Origin: Armatimonadota bacterium
Lineage (GTDB): Bacteria; Armatimonadota; Zipacnadia; Zipacnadales; JABUFB01
DNA length: 64,000 nucleotides
Assembly (NCBI GenBank): GCA_013314775.1
Contig: JABUFB010000008.1
Coordinates: forward strand, 725,036 to 789,035
Direction: 5' to 3'
The notes beneath the pieces were generated by a model. The model saw only the letters and a program-made list of their open reading frames with translations, had not been told where the DNA came from and searched no databases. The position numbers and the translations under genes were made by a program. The stretch's first letter is position 1; each line of letters starts with the position of its first letter. Positions 3,776-63,111 of this stretch are shown one piece after another.

Positions 3776-3885
3776 TGCATTGGGGCCAGTGTCAAGAGTC
3801 TGCGTCACGGGGGCGATCGGATTGGCAGGCGATCTGAGGGGGTAAAAGGATGTTTCAGCCCACATTACACTCAGGAAAGGCAACC

Positions 3886-4503
3886 ATGAAACGCAGGCCT
3901 CTCGCCGGCTTCACACTCATCGAACTCCTGGTCGTCATCGCGATCATCGCGATCCTGGCAGCCATTCTCTTCCCGGTTTTCGCGCGAGCGCGGGAGAAAG
4001 CCCGGCAGAGTTCCTGCCTGTCCAACCTGAAGCAGATCACCCTCTCGCTACTCATGTACGCCGACGACTGGGACGAGACCCTTCCCTACTACCAGCGGCC
4101 GTGGGGCTACGCGTGGTACGACGACATCATCCCGTACATGAAGAACCGGCAGATTCTCGTCTGCCCCAGCAAGACCGACTGGAACCCCAGTGCCCCCACC
4201 CACAAGACGGGGTACGGTCTCAACGAAACCGTCTTCCCTTCGGGCAATGGCTCGCCGTGGCCGGTCCCGCCGATACCGCTGAGCGCCATCCAGAGCCCAT
4301 CGGAGACCATCGCAGGAGCCGACAAGAACCAGGGGAATGTGTACATCGTCGGGCTGTCTTTCTCGGGTTCGACTGCCTGGCCGTACAATGTGGACACCCG
4401 ACACAATGACGGCGCGAACTTTGCCTTCATGGACGGGCATGCCAAGTCCATGAGTAAGGGGGGCACGTGGTCGACGAGCAACACCATGTGGGACCTGTAC
4501 TGA
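3886..4503 (+). CDS. Prepilin-type N-terminal cleavage/methylation domain protein, DUF1559 (H-X9-DG) family.
   Basis: [50 protein letters not shown] is a type IV pilin-like N-methylation site plus hydrophobic helix. [16 protein letters not shown] near the C-terminus is the H-X9-DG motif. An RBS (AGGAAAGG) precedes the ATG at 3886. Confidence 0.8.
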
Positions 4504-39643: not shown

Positions 39644-39990
39644 TTGGTGGAGGCGGCGGGAATCGAACCCGCGTCCGAAGAGAGGAACGACACTGCGTCT
39701 ACGAGCGTAGCGGCCGATTCGATCTCGCCGTGGCTTCCCTGGTCGCCCGGTATCCCCGGCCAGCCCGAATTTGGTTCCCGCGTCCCTTAGCGGGCGTTTG
39801 GGACGTCGGTATCCAACCCAGTTGATGTCTCATCCGAAGCGGGTTGGCTCGCCCCGGGAGACATGGCTACGTTAAGCAGCCAGTGCCAGTTCGTTGTTGG
39901 CAGTTATTCTTTTCCCGCGTTTTACGAGACTCGGGGATCTCGGCTCGCAGCCTTGCCTTTCCTGTCTCCCCGTCGAAACCAATCGCCCCC
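39644..39990 (-). ncRNA. ssrA: tmRNA (SsrA) with encoded tag peptide (A)ANNELALAA.
   Basis: The minus-strand 5' end is GGGGGCGAUUGGUUUCGACGGGG. The 3' end is GGACGCGGGUUCGAUUCCCGCCGCCUCCACCA (T-arm, acceptor stem with a G3-U pair, CCA). The internal reading frame is GCC AAC AAC GAA CUG GCA CUG GCU GCU UAA. Confidence 0.88.
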
Positions 39991-53554: not shown

Positions 53555-54811
53555 TCACTCCTTCAACGCATACAATTCCATCGCGTTCTGTCGCATCATC
53601 TTGTCGCATAAGTCCAGCGCGCAGTCTTCGCTGAGGAAGTCGCGCTCCACCTTGGTCGCCAGCACGTCCGCAATGCAGGCCCGCGCCATGGCAAGATGCG
53701 AGTACAGCATCTCCGGCCAGGGAACGTCCGAGCCGAACCCCAGGATGCGGTATCCCGGAACGAGGTCCAGCCACTCGTTGAGGCTCTGGCGCGTTCCCTC
53801 CATGGTCACCACGTATATCCACGCCATATTCAACCAGACATTGGGGAAGTGCTTAGCGAGCATGCCAATCTCGCGGCTGTAGGGGTATCCGGCGTGGTAC
53901 AAGCTGAACCGGGTGCCCGGGTTTGCGCGCAAGAGCGGTATCAAGTGCAACGGATCAGACTCGGGAACAAGCCCCCACGTGCTTTGCACACCGGTGTGGA
54001 TGTCGAAGACGAGGTTCATCTCCCCCGCTGTCCTCGCCAGGTAGAAGATGATGTAATCCTGAAGCTGCTTGATCTCGGACGCTGTCAAGGTCTGCCCCAC
54101 CAGGCTTCGCGAGAACAGCGCGGTGGCGGTGCGCTCGTCAACCGGTTCGGACAGGAGCGTACGCGAGTACGCGTGGGCCAGCTTGATCCCCCGGGCGCCG
54201 CGAGCCTGATACTCGGCCATGAGTTGCGCCAGGCCTTCCCTGATGTCAGCAAGCGAACCGAAGTCTCGGTCGAGATGGCTTGCCAGCCGCGCCCGTGTAT
54301 CTGCATGGTGGAGGTTCAGCGCCGACTCCATGCGCAGGATGGCAGTGAAGTATGTCGGATCCCAGTTGCCGAACCAGTCGACGTTGAGCATCTGGGTTTG
54401 CAGATTGCACAGGCCGGTGACCTGCGCGTACCAGCCCGGATCGGAGGTGGTTGCGATGATGCGCTCGTTCACCGCCTCCCAGTTGTCGTCGGTCAGCTCA
54501 GCATCCTGCAAACCGAACAGAGCCTGGTAGGTGACGAGATTGTGCCGCCAGTAGGAGATGTTCCGGCAGCGATCTACCACTCCGCGCAGTACCTGCCAGC
54601 GCTCGGCATGGGTGTCGCAGCCCTCATAAGCCTGCCCCGTGGACTTGCCCAGTGTCGCCTCGAAATCACGCACGAAGTAGCTCATGAGGCTGAACAGGTT
54701 CAGGGGAGCCACATTGGCGTAATCCTCGGGCTGCTGGGTGTGTGAATGGCAGTCTACGGTGCGGATCGACTCTAGACGGGCGAGTATCCGATCGCGGAGC
54801 TTGTCGCTCAT
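53555..54811 (-). CDS. Amidohydrolase-2-type TIM-barrel metal-dependent hydrolase.
   Basis: DCHSHT is near the N-terminus, with downstream His/Asp (FDIHTG, YHAGYP, GSDVP) characteristic of the amidohydro_2 fold. Confidence 0.6.
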   Translation of the reverse strand: MSDKLRDRILARLESIRTVDCHSHTQQPEDYANVAPLNLFSLMSYFVRDFEATLGKSTGQAYEGCDTHAERWQVLRGVVDRCRNISYWRHNLVTYQALFGLQDAELTDDNWEAVNERIIATTSDPGWYAQVTGLCNLQTQMLNVDWFGNWDPTYFTAILRMESALNLHHADTRARLASHLDRDFGSLADIREGLAQLMAEYQARGARGIKLAHAYSRTLLSEPVDERTATALFSRSLVGQTLTASEIKQLQDYIIFYLARTAGEMNLVFDIHTGVQSTWGLVPESDPLHLIPLLRANPGTRFSLYHAGYPYSREIGMLAKHFPNVWLNMAWIYVVTMEGTRQSLNEWLDLVPGYRILGFGSDVPWPEMLYSHLAMARACIADVLATKVERDFLSEDCALDLCDKMMRQNAMELYALKE

Positions 54812-56498: not shown

Positions 56499-57206
56499 GT
56501 GCGAGTCATGGCCGTCGGGGCGCATCCCGATGATGTGGAGATGTACTGCTCAGGGACTCTTCTTGCCTGCCGCGCAAGAGGCGATGATCTGTTCGTCTGC
56601 TGCATGACCAACGGCGACAAAGGCGCCTATGAGATGACCTGCGAGGAGCTTGCAGCCGTCCGCCGCAGGGAAGCCGGGGAAGCAGCCGCGATCTTCGGAG
56701 CGGAGCTGATGTTCCTGAGTCTGCCCGACGGTGAGCTTTTCGTGGATGAAGCGTGCCGTGCACCGCTCATCGACGCAATCAGACAGGCCCGTCCCGACAT
56801 TATCATCACACACAACCCCGAGGACTATCACCCGGACCACTGCAACACCAGCGCCCTTGTGTTCAGCGCGAGTTTCCTGGCAGGCGCACCCAATGTGAAA
56901 GGACTGCGAGACCTGCCGGGACATGACCGTGTGCCCGCAGTCTTCTACATGGACACGCCCACCGGCACGGGCTTCCAGCCTACCGAGTACGTGGACATCA
57001 CCCCGTACTGGGAGACCAAGGTCCGCATCATCGAGTGTCACGCCAGCCAGGTGCAATGGATCCGCGAGCACGACGGGCTGGACATCGTGGATGTTGCGCG
57101 GGTGATGGCCGAGTTCCGCGGCATGCAGTGCGGAGTCCGTTATGCGGAAGGCTTCCGGCAGCTCACGCAATGGCCGCGGATGACCACGAAACGACTGCTG
57201 CCCTGA
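56499..57206 (+). CDS. PIG-L/LmbE family N-acetylglucosaminyl deacetylase.
   Basis: It has AHPDDVE, then HPDH with a downstream His, which is the LmbE zinc site. Confidence 0.75.
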   Translation: MRVMAVGAHPDDVEMYCSGTLLACRARGDDLFVCCMTNGDKGAYEMTCEELAAVRRREAGEAAAIFGAELMFLSLPDGELFVDEACRAPLIDAIRQARPDIIITHNPEDYHPDHCNTSALVFSASFLAGAPNVKGLRDLPGHDRVPAVFYMDTPTGTGFQPTEYVDITPYWETKVRIIECHASQVQWIREHDGLDIVDVARVMAEFRGMQCGVRYAEGFRQLTQWPRMTTKRLLP

Positions 57207-57235
57207 ACCGGAATATGGAACGGAGGACGCGACGG

Positions 57236-58009
57236 ATGGCAAACTGGAATCTTGCCGAGACCACCCTGGGACTAGCGCGGGATGAGCAGTACGAAGTCGC
57301 GGTTCTGCCTGTGGGAGCAACCGAGGCCCACGGACTGCATCTTCCGTACGCAACCGACACGATCATGGTGGAACGCCTCGGGAGGCTGGCGTGCGAGCGG
57401 GCGTCGGGGGACGGCGCCAGGGTCCTGCTGCTGCCCGCATTGCCCTTCGGGATCAATGAGAACACCCTGGGGTTCAAGTGGACGATGAGTCTTCGCCCAA
57501 GTACGCTGTTCCAGGTGGTCACGGACATCGTGTCCAGTGTTGAGGAGCACGGAATCCCGAAGATGGTAGTGCTCAACGGCCACGGAGGAAACGAGTTCCA
57601 GCCCCTCCTGCGAGAGCTTTTTCGGCAGACCAGCGTGAGGTTGTTCCTCGTGAACTGGTACATGGCCAACCAGGCAGCGGCACGAGAAGTTTTCGAGCGG
57701 CCTGGAGAGCATGCGGATGAGATGGAGACTTCCATGCTCCTGCACATGCGGCCGGACCTGGTGCGGATGGAGCTTGCAGGAGACGGGGCGACGCGCGAAC
57801 CGGTTTTCCGAGCGATGCGCGAGGGCTGGGCGTGGGTGGCCCGTCCGTGGGACCGGTTCACCGTGGACAGCAGCTTCGGAGACCCGGCACGTGCGACAGC
57901 GCAAAAAGGTGCGGCTTACGAGGAAGCGATCGTCGGCAAGCTGGCGCAGTTCATTACCGAGCTCGCCGCGGCTCCGGTGGATGAAATGTTCCCATACCGT
58001 GAAGCATAG
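57236..58009 (+). CDS. Creatininase-family amidohydrolase.
   Basis: LPVGATEAHGLHLP and VLNGHGGN are creatinine amidohydrolase family motifs. An RBS (GGAGGA) precedes the ATG. Confidence 0.8.
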   Translation: MANWNLAETTLGLARDEQYEVAVLPVGATEAHGLHLPYATDTIMVERLGRLACERASGDGARVLLLPALPFGINENTLGFKWTMSLRPSTLFQVVTDIVSSVEEHGIPKMVVLNGHGGNEFQPLLRELFRQTSVRLFLVNWYMANQAAAREVFERPGEHADEMETSMLLHMRPDLVRMELAGDGATREPVFRAMREGWAWVARPWDRFTVDSSFGDPARATAQKGAAYEEAIVGKLAQFITELAAAPVDEMFPYREA

Positions 58010-58087: not shown

Positions 58088-58291
58088 TTAGTTGATGACC
58101 ATGACGTTCTCGGCCCGAGGGCCCTTCGCGTCCTGGACCACGTCGAACTCAACCTTCGCGCCTTCGGCCAGAGACCGGTAGCCCTCCCCAACAATGGCGG
58201 AGAAATGAACGAAAACGTCCTCGCTACCATCGGTCTCAATGAAACCGAAGCCCTTCTCGTCGTTGAACCACTTGACGGTGCCAGTAGGCAA
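58088..58291 (-). CDS. cspA: Cold-shock protein (CspA family).
   Basis: It has [15 protein letters not shown] (RNP1) and VFVHFSAI (RNP2). The start is TTG with GGAGGT 9 nt upstream. Confidence 0.9.
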
Positions 58292-59134: not shown

Positions 59135-60586
59135 CTAATCTGCCGCGAACATGGTCTCCAGGATCCCCACGGCCTCATCAACGAGTTGCTGGCCACCGGC
59201 GGGCGACACATTGCAGCTTGCCGGCACCGCACCATAACTCAGTCCCTCCGCCGCGCGCTCGGTTGCCAGATAGGGACCACCGACGACGAGTTGCACCACG
59301 AAAGTCTGCACCGCCGGCGAGCGCCCTTTGATGCGGTCACCAAAGTCCAGGTAGTACTCGAATGGCGCTGTGACAAGAGCAATGTCGCCCACACGCAGGA
59401 CATTGACCTCGGTGGGCACACTATCCGGCGGGTTCTCGTAGCGGTCCACCGCGCGCCGGCACCAGGCGATCCTCGAGCGCAGAGATGTGTACTGGCTCCC
59501 CAGACGATCGGCATCACCCAGTTCTGCCAGCTGCCTCTCGGCCTCTGCAATGTCCTGCATCAAATCCGCATGCTCCGCCGCCGTGACCCTCCAGTGTTCG
59601 AGTTGGAGCGTGCGGTTCTCGTGTTTCAGTACCGCCCGGTCCCGCAGATCGCCGCGGATGACGGTCTCGGCCCCAACGGTCGCGTCCGCGATGCGGCAAG
59701 CAATCTCGGTGCGCAGAGCGGCGTTCAGGGGACGGCCAACTCCGCCGCCGTATTTGAGCTGCAGCATACGATCTTCAGCCTTCTTCGCGATCAGCCGGTG
59801 CGGGCTCTGGTCACCTGCGGCCGAACACTGGGGCAGCACGAAAAGGCCCGCGCCCAACCGCCGGCGCAACTCTTCGCGGACGTCATGCCAGTAGTCGGCC
59901 GAGACAAAGTCCTGCCCGCTTTCGCTGGCTTGCGACGGGCAGGCGAGATTGATCAGCACGCCCGTCAGGTTCCTCGCGGAGTCGTATGTGAACAGCAGGT
60001 TCACGCCGTGGTCTACGTGGCCCTCGATGTGAGAGAACTCGGGCACACTGGTGCTGCCGTACATCTTCGCGCTGCCGTCGAAGTACCGGACACGGCGGTT
60101 CTCGCCCACCACTGCGTGCGAGTAGCCCCAGCCGATGTGCCCCTCCGAGCGCCGTTTCCACGCCTCGCACACCGCATCCACCAGCGCCTCGATGAGCATC
60201 TCGGTGTACTCGGCTACGGTCACGTAATCAGGATAGCGGGCCCTGATGGCATCAAGGTACTCGGCATCCTGCTGCCAGCCGCCGGTTCCGTTAAATGGTC
60301 CGGTGTGCGTGTGCGTCGCGCCGATGATGATCTTGTGCGGATCCAGCTCCGGAACGCGTTCGGCAAGCGCCGCTCGCACCTCCCGGAGCACTTCGCCAGC
60401 GACTGAACACGCATCCACGGAAACGATCGCCGCATGGTCATCGTCTCTCTGCAGCACTAAGGCGGTCAATGTGAGCGGATCCTGCACTCGTGTGGCGATG
60501 CGCAGGTTGAACTGTCCGTGAAGGGATACCGGCCCCTGAGGGGTGATGTCTCGCTGTGCCCAGCCGATCCGGATCTTGTTTTTCAT
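59135..60586 (-). CDS. Neutral/alkaline ceramidase-like hydrolase (N-terminal ceramidase domain), cytoplasmic.
   Basis: IIGATHTHTGP is the signature of neutral ceramidases. There is no signal peptide. The start is at MKNKIRIGW (60586). Confidence 0.65.
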   Translation of the reverse strand: MKNKIRIGWAQRDITPQGPVSLHGQFNLRIATRVQDPLTLTALVLQRDDDHAAIVSVDACSVAGEVLREVRAALAERVPELDPHKIIIGATHTHTGPFNGTGGWQQDAEYLDAIRARYPDYVTVAEYTEMLIEALVDAVCEAWKRRSEGHIGWGYSHAVVGENRRVRYFDGSAKMYGSTSVPEFSHIEGHVDHGVNLLFTYDSARNLTGVLINLACPSQASESGQDFVSADYWHDVREELRRRLGAGLFVLPQCSAAGDQSPHRLIAKKAEDRMLQLKYGGGVGRPLNAALRTEIACRIADATVGAETVIRGDLRDRAVLKHENRTLQLEHWRVTAAEHADLMQDIAEAERQLAELGDADRLGSQYTSLRSRIAWCRRAVDRYENPPDSVPTEVNVLRVGDIALVTAPFEYYLDFGDRIKGRSPAVQTFVVQLVVGGPYLATERAAEGLSYGAVPASCNVSPAGGQQLVDEAVGILETMFAAD

Positions 60587-60889
60587 TTCGCGTGTGCCTC
60601 GGTTCTGTGACGGAATGCCCTCGGAGAGCACTCAGGGCGGTCCGAAGGTTGTTCAGGCCATTTCTATCTGCGCGGCAGTCGGACCCACACGATGCGTAGT
60701 GCCTTTGTGTGTTGCCTGTGCAGCAGACATAGAGAGCGATGGCCCCTGGACTCTTCCACGTGGGAAGTACACTCCACCTTCCCGCGGGATTGGACAAAGG
60801 CCGGTGCGGTTCCTGCAAGGTCTCCACGCCTGCCGAGGGGAACAGTCCTGCAGTGACGCGGCACGACTCCCTCGCAACGAGGTGCGCTC

Positions 60890-62173
60890 ATGCTCACGGC
60901 CGGAGTGTCCTGTCTGGATATTACTCCTCCTCTGGGGACCCGGATGCGCGGCTATTTCGAGGAACGCACGGCCAGCAGCGTGCACGATCCCCTGCACGTG
61001 CGCAGCTTCGCCCTGGAGGATTCCGGCGCCGCGCTTGCCATCGCCGTCTGTGATGTGATCGGCATCAGCCGCCAATACCTGGACCGGGCCAAACCCCGAA
61101 TTGCTGAGACCACCGGCCTGCAGCCGAAGCAGGTGATGATCGCCTGCACCCACACCCATACCGGACCGGAAACCGGCGATGACCCTTACACAGAGTGGCT
61201 TTGGGGACGCATCGCCGACGGTGTGCGCATCGCCTGGCAGGCCCGGGAACCCGCGCAAGTGGGATGGGCGCGGACCACAGAGGCGAGGCTGGTTTTCAAT
61301 CGCCGGTACCACATGGCGGATGGCTCTGTCCAGACCAATCCGGGCGTGGGCAATCCCGATGTGGTCGAGCCGGCTGGACCGGTTGACCCCGAAGTAGGCG
61401 TTCTTGCACTTCATCGCGCGGATGGCCGGACGCTGGGCCTGCTGGGCAACTACTCGCTGCATTACGTGGGTATCCCCGACGACTTCACGTCTTTCTCGGC
61501 CGACTATTTTGGATTCTTCTCAACCATGGTGCAGCGGCTGCGGGGGGAGAGCTTCGTTGCCGCCCTGTCTAACGGTGCATCGGGGGACATCAATAACGTG
61601 GACGTGCTGGGCCGGTCCGTGAGGCGCAATGACCGGTACCAGCATTGCGAACGCGCGGGGGCAATCGTCGCCGCGAGCGCCTTCTATGCGTGGAACGAAG
61701 CGGAGTTCACCGGGCAGACGCGCCTTAGCAGCGCGCTTGCCGAGATCACCCTGGAACCTCGCCCGCCGGCCACTGAAGAGGACCTGGCGAAGGCACGGGA
61801 GATCGAGGACCGTCTCGCCGCTGGCCAACACGTGCTCATGGGCGAGCGATCCTTCCAGCGGCGCGTCCGGCGCTTCGAGGCGGAGCCACCTGCTGCTCGG
61901 GCCACGGTGGTTCAGGCCCTGCGCGTCGGTGACCTTGCACTGGTGGGCGCGCCGGGAGAGTTCTTCGTCGAACTGGGCCTGGAGATCAAGCGCCGCTCGC
62001 CTTTTGCGCAGACCATGGTGATCGAGCTGGCTAATGACAGTGTGGGCTACATCCCGACCCGGCGTGCTTTCGAGGAAGGAGGGTACGAACCCAACTCCAG
62101 CCCCTACAAGCCGGGGTTTGGCGAACTGATCGTCGAGACGGCCGTGGGGTTGTTGGAAGGCCTCAAGGACTGA
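60890..62173 (+). CDS. Neutral/alkaline ceramidase-like hydrolase, divergent paralog.
   Basis: [11 protein letters not shown] is present, with the same domain order. It is divergent from 59135..60586 across a roughly 300-bp spacer. An RBS (GAGGTG) precedes the ATG. Confidence 0.65.
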
Positions 62174-62409: not shown

Positions 62410-63111
62410 ATGAGACGCGGGTTCACGTTGATCGAGCTGTTGGTGGTGATCGCGATTATCGCGATTCTGGCCGCGATACTCTTCCCGGTCTTTGCGCGCG
62501 CCAGAGAGAAAGCCCGGCAGGCAAGTTGCTCATCGAACCAGAAACAGATCGCATTGGGCATCCTGATGTACGGGCAGGACTACGACGAAGCATTCCCGGG
62601 TTTCTACTACAAGGCAACCACGGCTGATTGGCCGCTGTTCATCTGGATTGACGCGGTCAAGCCCTACGTGAAGAATGAGCAGATCTTCCGCTGTCCCAGC
62701 GGCAATGACAGCACCCTCACCGGCCCATCCACCAACTACGCGGGCACCACGATCACCACTTCCTACGCCGTGAACCGATACGTCTGCAATGGGGGGCGCG
62801 GAGCATTCGACAACCGCATCGGCCAGATAACCTACCCGGCACAGACCTTGCTCACCTTCGACGCCATTCGAGCTTCGCGCTGGTGTGCCACGCCGATGGG
62901 AACCGGAGGCAGCCGCGGTGATGACTGCTACGGCCGCCCCGCCGGGATCATCGAAGTCGCTGGTGGCTCATTCACCGTCGGGCAGGACTTCGGTCTTCAC
63001 AATGAAGGTGCCAACATGTCCTTCTGCGACGGCCACGTGAAATGGCAGAAGAGCGGATCGTGGGAATCGTACGCGAAGCATTACACCACTTACTGGCAGA
63101 AGACGCGCTGA
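62410..63111 (+). CDS. Prepilin-type N-terminal cleavage/methylation domain protein, DUF1559 family (second copy).
   Basis: [46 protein letters not shown] is nearly identical to the leader of the 3886 gene. [16 protein letters not shown] is the H-X9-DG motif. Confidence 0.8.

Follow-up and report, generated by a model that had tools for sequence, protein, structure and literature searches.

The neutral-ceramidase fold has, to our knowledge, been described only in lipid hydrolases that are secreted or bound to membranes. What, then, might be the role of two neighbouring genes in a member of the Armatimonadota whose products have this fold and carry no export signal? The genes, here called P1 and P2, lie in a 64-kb stretch of DNA (the window; all coordinates below are window positions), and their products appear to have separated long ago within a very large branch of the neutral-ceramidase superfamily that is uncharacterised and comprises the catalytic domain only. 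With moderate confidence we propose that both are cytoplasmic metallo-amidohydrolases of soluble N-acyl amino-sugar-like substrates, P2 with a canonical and P1 with a rewired active site. The P1-type clade with its exchanged metal ligand is new; P2 is an ordinary member of a named, unstudied family. The gene pair in the window is one unremarkable instance of that family, and it is to the family that the interest attaches.

Two divergent genes

A preliminary description of this DNA had placed two ceramidase-like open reading frames (ORFs) in divergent orientation between 59135 and 62173. Both are present there, and they do point away from each other:

59135..60586, minus strand: P1, 483 residues, neutral-ceramidase fold, P1-type clade, without signal peptide or tail domain
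60587..60889, no strand: spacer between P1 and P2, 303 bp when the corrected P1 start is used
60890..62173, plus strand: P2, 427 residues, neutral-ceramidase fold, canonical active site, without signal peptide or tail domain

The mechanical P1 ORF, 59135-60631 (-), reaches a GTG at 60631. The true start is almost certainly the ATG at 60586 (MKNKIRIGW, 483 residues), because the public gene call P0121 (HPY44_10220, "hypothetical protein") has 483 residues and is 100% identical to P1, and because a close relative (locus L091) keeps the GAGG box and ATG of P1; the segment with the upstream GTG is deleted in L091. P2 has an in-frame stop 33 nt upstream of its start, and a GAGG Shine-Dalgarno box stands ahead of both ATGs that flank the spacer. 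Base composition at P1 and P2, about 63% G+C, resembles that of the remaining window.

Homology and fold

P1 and P2 are paralogues over their full length (29% identity, BLASTP E 3e-35); profiles of the two families align with a probability of 100 and E 8e-40 (hhalign), both proteins contain the motif THTHTGP, and the likeness is far beyond chance. P2 passes the cutoff for Pfam family PF04734 (45.8 bits, cutoff 32.1), and P1 lies just below it (30.4 bits). By sequence, P2 matches the ceramidase of Pseudomonas aeruginosa (PaCDase; PDB 2ZWS, phmmer E 5e-12) and also human nCDase (4WGK); a phmmer search of the PDB with P1 gave no match, and a P1 family profile gave marginal matches only (E 0.03-0.07). 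AlphaFold models built from 34-35 homologues reached a predicted local distance difference test score (pLDDT) of 88.9 and a predicted template-modelling score (pTM) of 0.90 for P2, and 78.2 and 0.84, respectively, for P1. When both models were compared with the PDB by Foldseek, neutral ceramidases were the only matches at E ≤ 0.001; the P1 model matches 2zws, 2zxc, and 4wgk only (E 3e-19). Sequence and predicted fold thus support the neutral-ceramidase homology originally claimed for both proteins, and we consider the fold and enzyme class very probably correct as assigned.

The tail domain PF17048, which the preliminary description had proposed to look for, has no match in P1 or P2 at E ≤ 1 in Pfam, and both proteins terminate at the end of the catalytic domain. 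Judged by sequence and model together, they are predicted to consist of the ceramidase catalytic domain and nothing else. The NCBIfam ceramidase equivalog NF041649 has no match in P1.

A canonical active site in P2

Residues were mapped by counting along HMMER alignments to PaCDase, and this counting reproduces what we take to be the published PaCDase active-site numbering. The equivalences, and their places in the P2 gene, are as follows:

PaCDase H97 and H99 (THTHSGP): P2 H88 and H90, by HMMER alignment
PaCDase R160 (NR): P2 R138 in an NRR motif, tentative, since the HMMER alignment is gapped there and the mapping is from the conserved NR motif
PaCDase H204 (PVHST): P2 H191, by HMMER alignment
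PaCDase E411 (APAEF): P2 E357 (PGEF), by HMMER alignment
PaCDase Y448 (ASYVT): P2 Y387 (GYIP), by HMMER alignment
PaCDase Y460 (QEYEG): P2 Y399 (GGYE), by HMMER alignment
61145..61165, plus strand: P2 motif CTHTHTG, with H88 equivalent to zinc ligand H97 and H90 to catalytic H99
61448..61465, plus strand: P2 segment NYSLH191Y, with H191 equivalent to zinc ligand H204
61952..62089, plus strand: P2 C-terminal active-site residues E357, Y387, and Y399, by alignment to PaCDase

In these alignments P2 retains every zinc ligand and catalytic residue of both PaCDase and human nCDase; of the four zinc ligands (His, His, Glu, Tyr; H97, H204, E411, and Y448 in PaCDase), P2 has all four and P1 three (H92, E410, and Y439). 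Conservation was counted in an alignment of 132 family members from the fetched loci (85 P2-type and 47 P1-type sequences). HxH, NRR, D166, Glu, Tyr, and Tyr are almost invariant in all subgroups; the catalytic set of His, Arg, and Tyr (H90, R138, and Y399 in P2; H94, R164, and Y451 in P1) is nearly invariant throughout; and many invariant polar residues (N, D, R, H) are peculiar to the family. Because both Zn(His,His,Glu,Tyr) and the His/Arg/Tyr set are complete, P2 should cleave an amide bond by the ceramidase mechanism, in which a metal-activated water would attack the carbonyl of the amide.

A metal-ligand exchange in the P1-type clade

The corresponding parts of P1 read differently at one ligand position:

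60296..60319, minus strand: P1 motif IIIGATHTHTGP (ATHTHTGP), with H92 equivalent to zinc ligand H97 and H94 to catalytic H99
60008..60037, minus strand: P1 His cluster FSH186-IEG-H190-VD-H193, clade-specific, a candidate substitute for the lost His ligand
59912..59950, minus strand: P1 segment NLACP217SQ219ASE222SGQ, with Pro217 at the position of the second zinc-ligand His (PaCDase H204, P2 H191)

This second ligand position is His in 85/85 P2-type sequences and Pro in 47/47 P1-type sequences. Within the P1 clade the HxH, Arg, Glu, and two Tyr residues are invariant, and new residues are fixed beside them: H186, H190, and H193 (signature FSHxEGHVDH) occur in 45-47 of the 47 P1-type and in none of the 85 P2-type sequences; Q219 and E222 are likewise fixed (45-47/47) and absent from P2-type sequences; H263 is as frequent in the clade (45-47/47), yet is also found in 12 of the 45 closest P2-type sequences and so is not exclusive to it. 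P2-type sequences have Pro in place of H190 and H193, and the corresponding residues of PaCDase are Ile and Pro. The P2 model shows one strand at residues 168-176 and the next at 181-188; if these are read as a hairpin, residue 166/167 would be set opposite 190/191, and the new His residues, which flank an invariant Asp, would for that reason adjoin the place of the lost ligand.

The preliminary description had held that loss of zinc-ligand residues would speak against its assignment. One such loss is found in P1, where the equivalent of H204 is the invariant Pro217; the other catalytic residues are kept and a new His cluster stands alongside, and we take the change to be remodelling. The pattern suggests that the metal site of P1 has been rewired by migration of a ligand rather than that function has been lost, possibly with a different metal or a different specificity. 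P1 would then still be active, with Pro in place of the His ligand and with the new invariant His residues clustered next to and opposite the site of the former ligand. Most of the P1-type proteins listed in our searches have no Pfam match and are named "hypothetical protein".

Cellular location

By a hydrophobicity heuristic (maximum 19-residue Kyte-Doolittle values of 1.16 for P1 and 1.52 for P2), neither protein has a hydrophobic N-terminus or a membrane segment; there is no room upstream to extend either N-terminus; and the alignment pairs residue 17 of P2 with residue 21 of mature, processed PaCDase. The absence of secretion signals noted at the outset therefore stands. Because both proteins lack a signal peptide and a tail domain, they should be soluble and cytoplasmic, and we infer that this is most probably where they act. 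The accompanying remark that bacterial neutral ceramidases are usually secreted fails to set this branch apart, as short members occur both with and without export signals: some members of the same short branch have Sec or twin-arginine translocation (TAT) signal peptides (P0253 and P0299, for example) and others have none.

A large and widespread family

Nor are such proteins rare, as had also been supposed. A word-indexed search returned more than 2,500 P2-type and more than 1,500 P1-type matches, and an exhaustive search of 1.84 billion representatives returned 16,077 clusters (defined at 50% identity) at E ≤ 1e-3, 7,598 at E ≤ 1e-10, and 1,435 at E ≤ 1e-30. A species-level genome scan found members in at least 588 species, among bacteria in Armatimonadota, Latescibacterota, Gemmatimonadota, Poribacteria, Chloroflexota, Limnochordia, Clostridia, Planctomycetota, and WS1, and among archaea in Bathyarchaeia, Brockarchaeota, and Nitrososphaerota. 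Of the 150 best representatives, the majority are 420-500 residues long, and P1 and P2, each a single catalytic domain homologous over its full length, fall within that range. Orthologues of P2 (58-92% identity over 100% of its length) occur in Armatimonadota, Latescibacterota, Gemmatimonadota, Poribacteria, and Chloroflexota. A P2-like domain, 34-42% identical to P2, also forms the N-terminus of giant multidomain proteins: P0245 (1942 residues), P0247 (1256), P0250 (2098), and P0261 (1065).

The neutral-ceramidase catalytic domain thus also exists in a stripped-down, non-secreted form, in at least 16,000 clusters from bacteria and archaea. A full-text literature search found no functional study of this short, PF04734-only or cytosolic ceramidase-like branch; the one relevant paper (PMC4443539) mentions PF04734 merely as the source of "partial domain" hits.

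Might P1 and P2 nevertheless be true ceramidases that work in the cytoplasm, with ceramide (as such or freed from imported glycosphingolipids) or a bacterial sphingolipid as substrate? The complete set of PaCDase and human nCDase zinc ligands and catalytic residues in P2 and the very strong fold match are what such enzymes would show, and genes of the GH123 type neighbour family members in three loci (L007, L019, and L113), GH123 being a glycoside hydrolase (GH) family of beta-N-acetylgalactosaminidases that includes glycosphingolipid-degrading enzymes. These arguments are countered by i) the soluble form of both proteins, without signal peptide, membrane segment, or tail domain; ii) the NF041649 score of P2, 23.9 bits against a cutoff of 1200; iii) the occurrence of the family in the three archaeal groups named above, which disfavours ceramide as a general substrate, and in some phyla for which we know of no sphingolipids; iv) the signal peptide carried by the GH123 neighbour in L007 itself, which places that enzyme in a different compartment; and v) the many family-specific invariant polar residues. 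We regard cytoplasmic ceramidases as very unlikely, and that P1 and P2 are not bona fide ceramidases as quite probable. They should not be annotated "neutral ceramidase", because they have neither the tail domain nor a secretion signal and do not reach the curated thresholds (NF041649 for both, PF04734 for P1), and because P1 lacks one zinc ligand.

Genomic context and the proposed substrate

Our preferred reading, a cytoplasmic amidohydrolase, leaves the substrate to be sought in the neighbourhoods of the homologues. We fetched 80 P2-type loci, 54 P1-type loci, and 15 places found by exact-protein look-up, clustered the neighbouring ORFs, and named them with Pfam and NCBIfam. Oxidoreductases of the Gfo/Idh/MocA type lie near the target in 41 of 144 loci, across nine taxon groups including archaea. 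A DegT/DnrJ/EryC1 sugar aminotransferase directly adjoins targets in Bathyarchaeia, in Armatimonadota, and beside P1-like genes: in Bathyarchaeia (L062-L064) the gene string is ceramidase-like, DegT, Gfo; in L015 DegT stands beside a P2 orthologue; and in L008-L010 and L113 it stands beside a P1-like gene, with AP_endonuc_2 also present in L008-L010. Other recurrent neighbours are xylose-isomerase-like TIM barrels (AP_endonuc_2), GntR regulators, an APC permease-Usp fusion, SBP_bac_1, PfkB, GH20, GH123, GH28, GH29, GH16, GH42, heparinase II/III-like proteins, sulfatase, CN_hydrolase, and PIG-L.

L005, L049, L051, and about 30 loci of Latescibacterota and Gemmatimonadota share a highly conserved operon around the P2-type gene, in the order histidine phosphatase, AP_endonuc_2, APC permease-Usp fusion, P2-type gene, Gfo/Idh/MocA (two or three genes), Cof-type HAD phosphatase, and, in divergent orientation, a GntR/FCD regulator; no neighbour in it attains an NCBIfam equivalog cutoff. 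Locus L146, a contig from the same sequencing run (SRR6186653) as L001, the duplicate contig of the window, holds a second P1-type paralogue, P0160, which is 68% identical to P1 and has the same HPY44 locus-tag prefix as P0121; its neighbours are GH20-like, AXE1 esterase, GHL10, GH29 fucosidase, AP_endonuc_2, and GH16. The genome therefore has several P1-type copies in glycan-degradation contexts. In Armatimonadota-like contigs a conserved protein of about 582 residues, without a signal peptide, lies directly upstream of and co-directional with P1-type genes (L006 6599-8347, L148 6182-7933, L099 2-1117, and L096 1-741); it is absent from the window, its only Pfam match is a sub-threshold one to DUF4350, and the idea that it is a relative of GH123 was rejected, as there is no similarity. 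DUF1846 was likewise rejected as a conserved divergent neighbour of P2, being present only in two closely related contigs.

These neighbourhoods point weakly to the catabolism of glycans and amino sugars. The substrates would be soluble N-acylated amino-sugar, amino-polyol, or aminocyclitol-type compounds from glycan breakdown, which would resemble ceramide in having an acylamino group flanked by hydroxyls, and the freed amine would be processed further by aminotransferases for sugars, oxidoreductases of the Gfo/Idh/MocA type, and isomerases with a TIM barrel. That P1 and P2 hydrolyse an amide other than ceramide, as the preliminary description had suggested, is the most reasonable reading; we infer the substrate itself from context, and a sugar-type one seems to us possible rather than probable.

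In the window itself the nearest enzymes are a local group of amide hydrolases, set apart from the pair by a cspA gene and a change of strand; the genes stand in the following order:

53555-54811: Amidohydro_2 gene
56499-57206, plus strand: PIG-L/LmbE-type de-N-acetylase (Pfam PIG-L)
57035-58009, plus strand: ORF of a creatininase-family amidohydrolase, directly after the PIG-L gene
58088-58291, minus strand: cspA-like cold-shock gene

A PIG-L gene is also found within the cluster around a P1-like gene in L148 (835-1710).

Several results weigh against our proposal: i) no carbohydrate-type operon neighbours of the P1/P2 pair exist within the window; ii) a distance of 1.1-2.6 kb, the cspA gene, and a change of strand separate the PIG-L and creatininase genes from the 3′ end of P1; iii) once targets had been de-replicated at 55% identity, Gfo/Idh/MocA and AP_endonuc_2 were no commoner at positions ±1-2 (4/27) than at ±5-6 (3/19), with a mild excess for DegT (4/27 at ±1); iv) neighbour families such as Gfo/Idh/MocA are abundant in such genomes, which makes the argument from context a weak one; v) some neighbours (the amino-acid permease and M20 and M55 peptidases) suit peptide or amino-acid-type substrates; and vi) confidence in the P1 model is low at just those loops that are invariant (162-191, 218-223, 257-271, and 435-457).

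The fifth point opens the alternative that the amides cleaved by P1 and P2 are not sugar derivatives but N-acyl amino acids, peptides, or nitrogen compounds of another kind. In the Latescibacterota/Gemmatimonadota operon the gene directly upstream is the APC-family amino-acid permease-Usp fusion, and a class III aminotransferase and CN_hydrolase, in addition to the two peptidases, adjoin some loci; the same operons, however, also include sugar-type dehydrogenases of the Gfo/Idh/MocA family (two or three), Cof-type sugar phosphatases, and a TIM barrel that resembles xylose isomerase, and glycoside hydrolases dominate the Armatimonadota contexts. We judge this alternative unlikely. An assignment of the substrate, whatever it turns out to be, would annotate thousands of "hypothetical" or misnamed "ceramidase" genes in environmental genomes, and could expose a missing step in the way Armatimonadota, Latescibacterota, and Bathyarchaeia turn over glycans or amino sugars.

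Do P1 and P2 form a unit?

The divergent P1-P2 pair is lineage-specific. Orthologues of P1 and P2 stand side by side only in the window (with duplicate contigs L001 and L145), in L091 (92% and 89% identity), in L095 (75% and 70%; AP_endonuc_2 lies between the two), and in L104 (70% and 67%, 2.8 kb apart); P2 orthologues with 83% identity (L002) or 74-77% identity (L147 and L149) have other neighbours. A spacer of about 300 bp, described at first as a shared control region, does exist (303 bp), and the roughly 110 nt 5′ of P2 are about 90% conserved relative to L091; the evidence nevertheless does not support a conserved unit, since the pair is confined to close relatives. A scan of the spacer (60587-60889) gave no match to a sigma-70-like promoter, a consensus from which Armatimonadota promoters may deviate, and only weak inverted repeats with no strong palindrome.

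The gene following P2 bears on the same question:

62410..63111, plus strand: DUF1559 / H-X9-DG prepilin-like gene (PF07596, PF07963), 236 nt after the P2 stop

With its true start at the ATG at 62410, it is a real downstream neighbour of P2, if not an immediately adjacent one as had been stated. A DUF1559 gene may suggest a planctomycete as host; the lineage is Armatimonadota. A second DUF1559 / H-X9-DG gene at 3850-4503 (+) has an N-terminus of 34 residues identical to that of the copy at 62410-63111. Prepilin-like ORFs make up 6 of the 1282 neighbour ORFs, and five of the six directly adjoin a P1-like gene (Fisher p 7e-4), an adjacency that represents about two independent lineages. Genes of the DUF1559 type stand beside P1-like genes in co-directional order with gaps of 13-29 bp in L133 (3123-3881), L137 (1385-2170), and L140 (857-1615), and convergently in L116 (2440-3090) and L138 (828-1478). 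We treat the link of DUF1559 to P1-like genes as a lead, not a finding, and whether the gene in the window is functionally part of the pair is uncertain.

One explanation of the divergent layout is simple juxtaposition within a lineage, with no shared regulation and with the DUF1559 gene as a chance neighbour. It accords with the restriction of the pair to relatives of at least 67% identity, with the other neighbours of the P2 orthologues in L002, L147, and L149, with a spacer that lacks a promoter-like site or strong palindrome, and with the occurrence of DUF1559 genes twice in the window; it accords less well with the five of six prepilin-like ORFs that adjoin a P1-like gene, even if these amount to about two independent lineages. 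To our minds this explanation is evenly poised between right and wrong.

The opposite extreme would be that P1, as a paralogue without catalytic activity or with a regulatory role, forms a heteromer with P2 or another member, so that the pair is one functional unit. P1 has indeed lost a canonical zinc ligand, His to Pro, and a second ceramidase-fold gene lies within a few genes of the P1-type gene in about 10 of 26 informative loci: the window, L091, L095, and L104, where the partner is a P2 orthologue; L117-119 and L148, where the partner is of a third type (31% identity to P2); and L006, L097, and L134, where it is a tandem P1-type copy. Against a dead P1, the P1 clade keeps the remaining catalytic residues and the new His/Gln/Glu set without variation, as an active enzyme under selection would; a partner is absent from most P1-type loci; the type of partner varies; and P2 orthologues at 74-83% identity are located without P1. 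A dead or regulatory P1 is accordingly a very doubtful proposition, while some functional coupling between paralogues may exist.

Other features of the window

Upstream of cspA, a promoter-like site at 58469-58441 is near consensus (TTGACA, 17 nt, TATAGT, with an upstream TG) and implies a 5′ leader of about 150 nt. The roughly 665 bp from this site to the P1 stop contain no convincing ORF, no Rfam match, and no similarity to related loci, and the whole 843-bp gap downstream of P1 was rejected as a conserved element, as it has no similarity in any related locus. The sole Rfam match in the window, far from the pair, is a complete transfer-messenger RNA (tmRNA) gene at 39645-39990 (-) (RF00023, 183.9 bits). 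A defence system was considered and rejected, as there was no PADLOC match.

A possible wider route and comparison with known systems

We wish to stress that a considerably bolder proposal could be built on these observations, one which we think rather unlikely as a whole. Amino sugars or aminocyclitols would be broken down in the cytoplasm by a non-phosphorylative route whose de-N-acylases, so far unrecognised, would be the short ceramidase-fold proteins; the route would run from the deacylase to a DegT-type transaminase, a Gfo/Idh/MocA oxidoreductase, and a TIM-barrel isomerase, and would be spread widely through uncultivated bacteria and Bathyarchaeia-type archaea; in P1-type members a metal ligand would have moved to a neighbouring loop, possibly with a new metal or new chemistry; and in some lineages DUF1559 pseudopilin-like proteins would capture the substrate.

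The reaction that we propose for P1 and P2, intracellular and metal-dependent hydrolytic removal of the N-acyl group of an amino sugar, resembles that of cytoplasmic NagA and of PIG-L/LmbE-type deacetylases; the folds are unrelated, so that these enzymes would be functional analogues only, and the analogy, drawn from genomic context, is a weak one. Among proteins of the same fold, human ASAH2 (PDB 4WGK) is a glycosylated ectoenzyme that is anchored in the membrane and has both a tail domain and a hydrophobic, deep pocket for ceramide, whereas P1 and P2, at 13-20% identity to it, are short soluble proteins. PaCDase (PDB 2ZWS and 2ZXC), about 20% identical, has 646 residues, against 427 in P2 and 483 in P1, both of which lack its signal peptide and C-terminal tail; P1 differs further in the Pro at the equivalent of H204 and in its new His cluster. 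Closest of all is the database family of short, PF04734-only proteins named [quoted passage not shown]. P2 is typical of it, its orthologues being so named or called "hypothetical", whereas the P1-type proteins are set apart from that family by the His-to-Pro ligand exchange and by two insertions.

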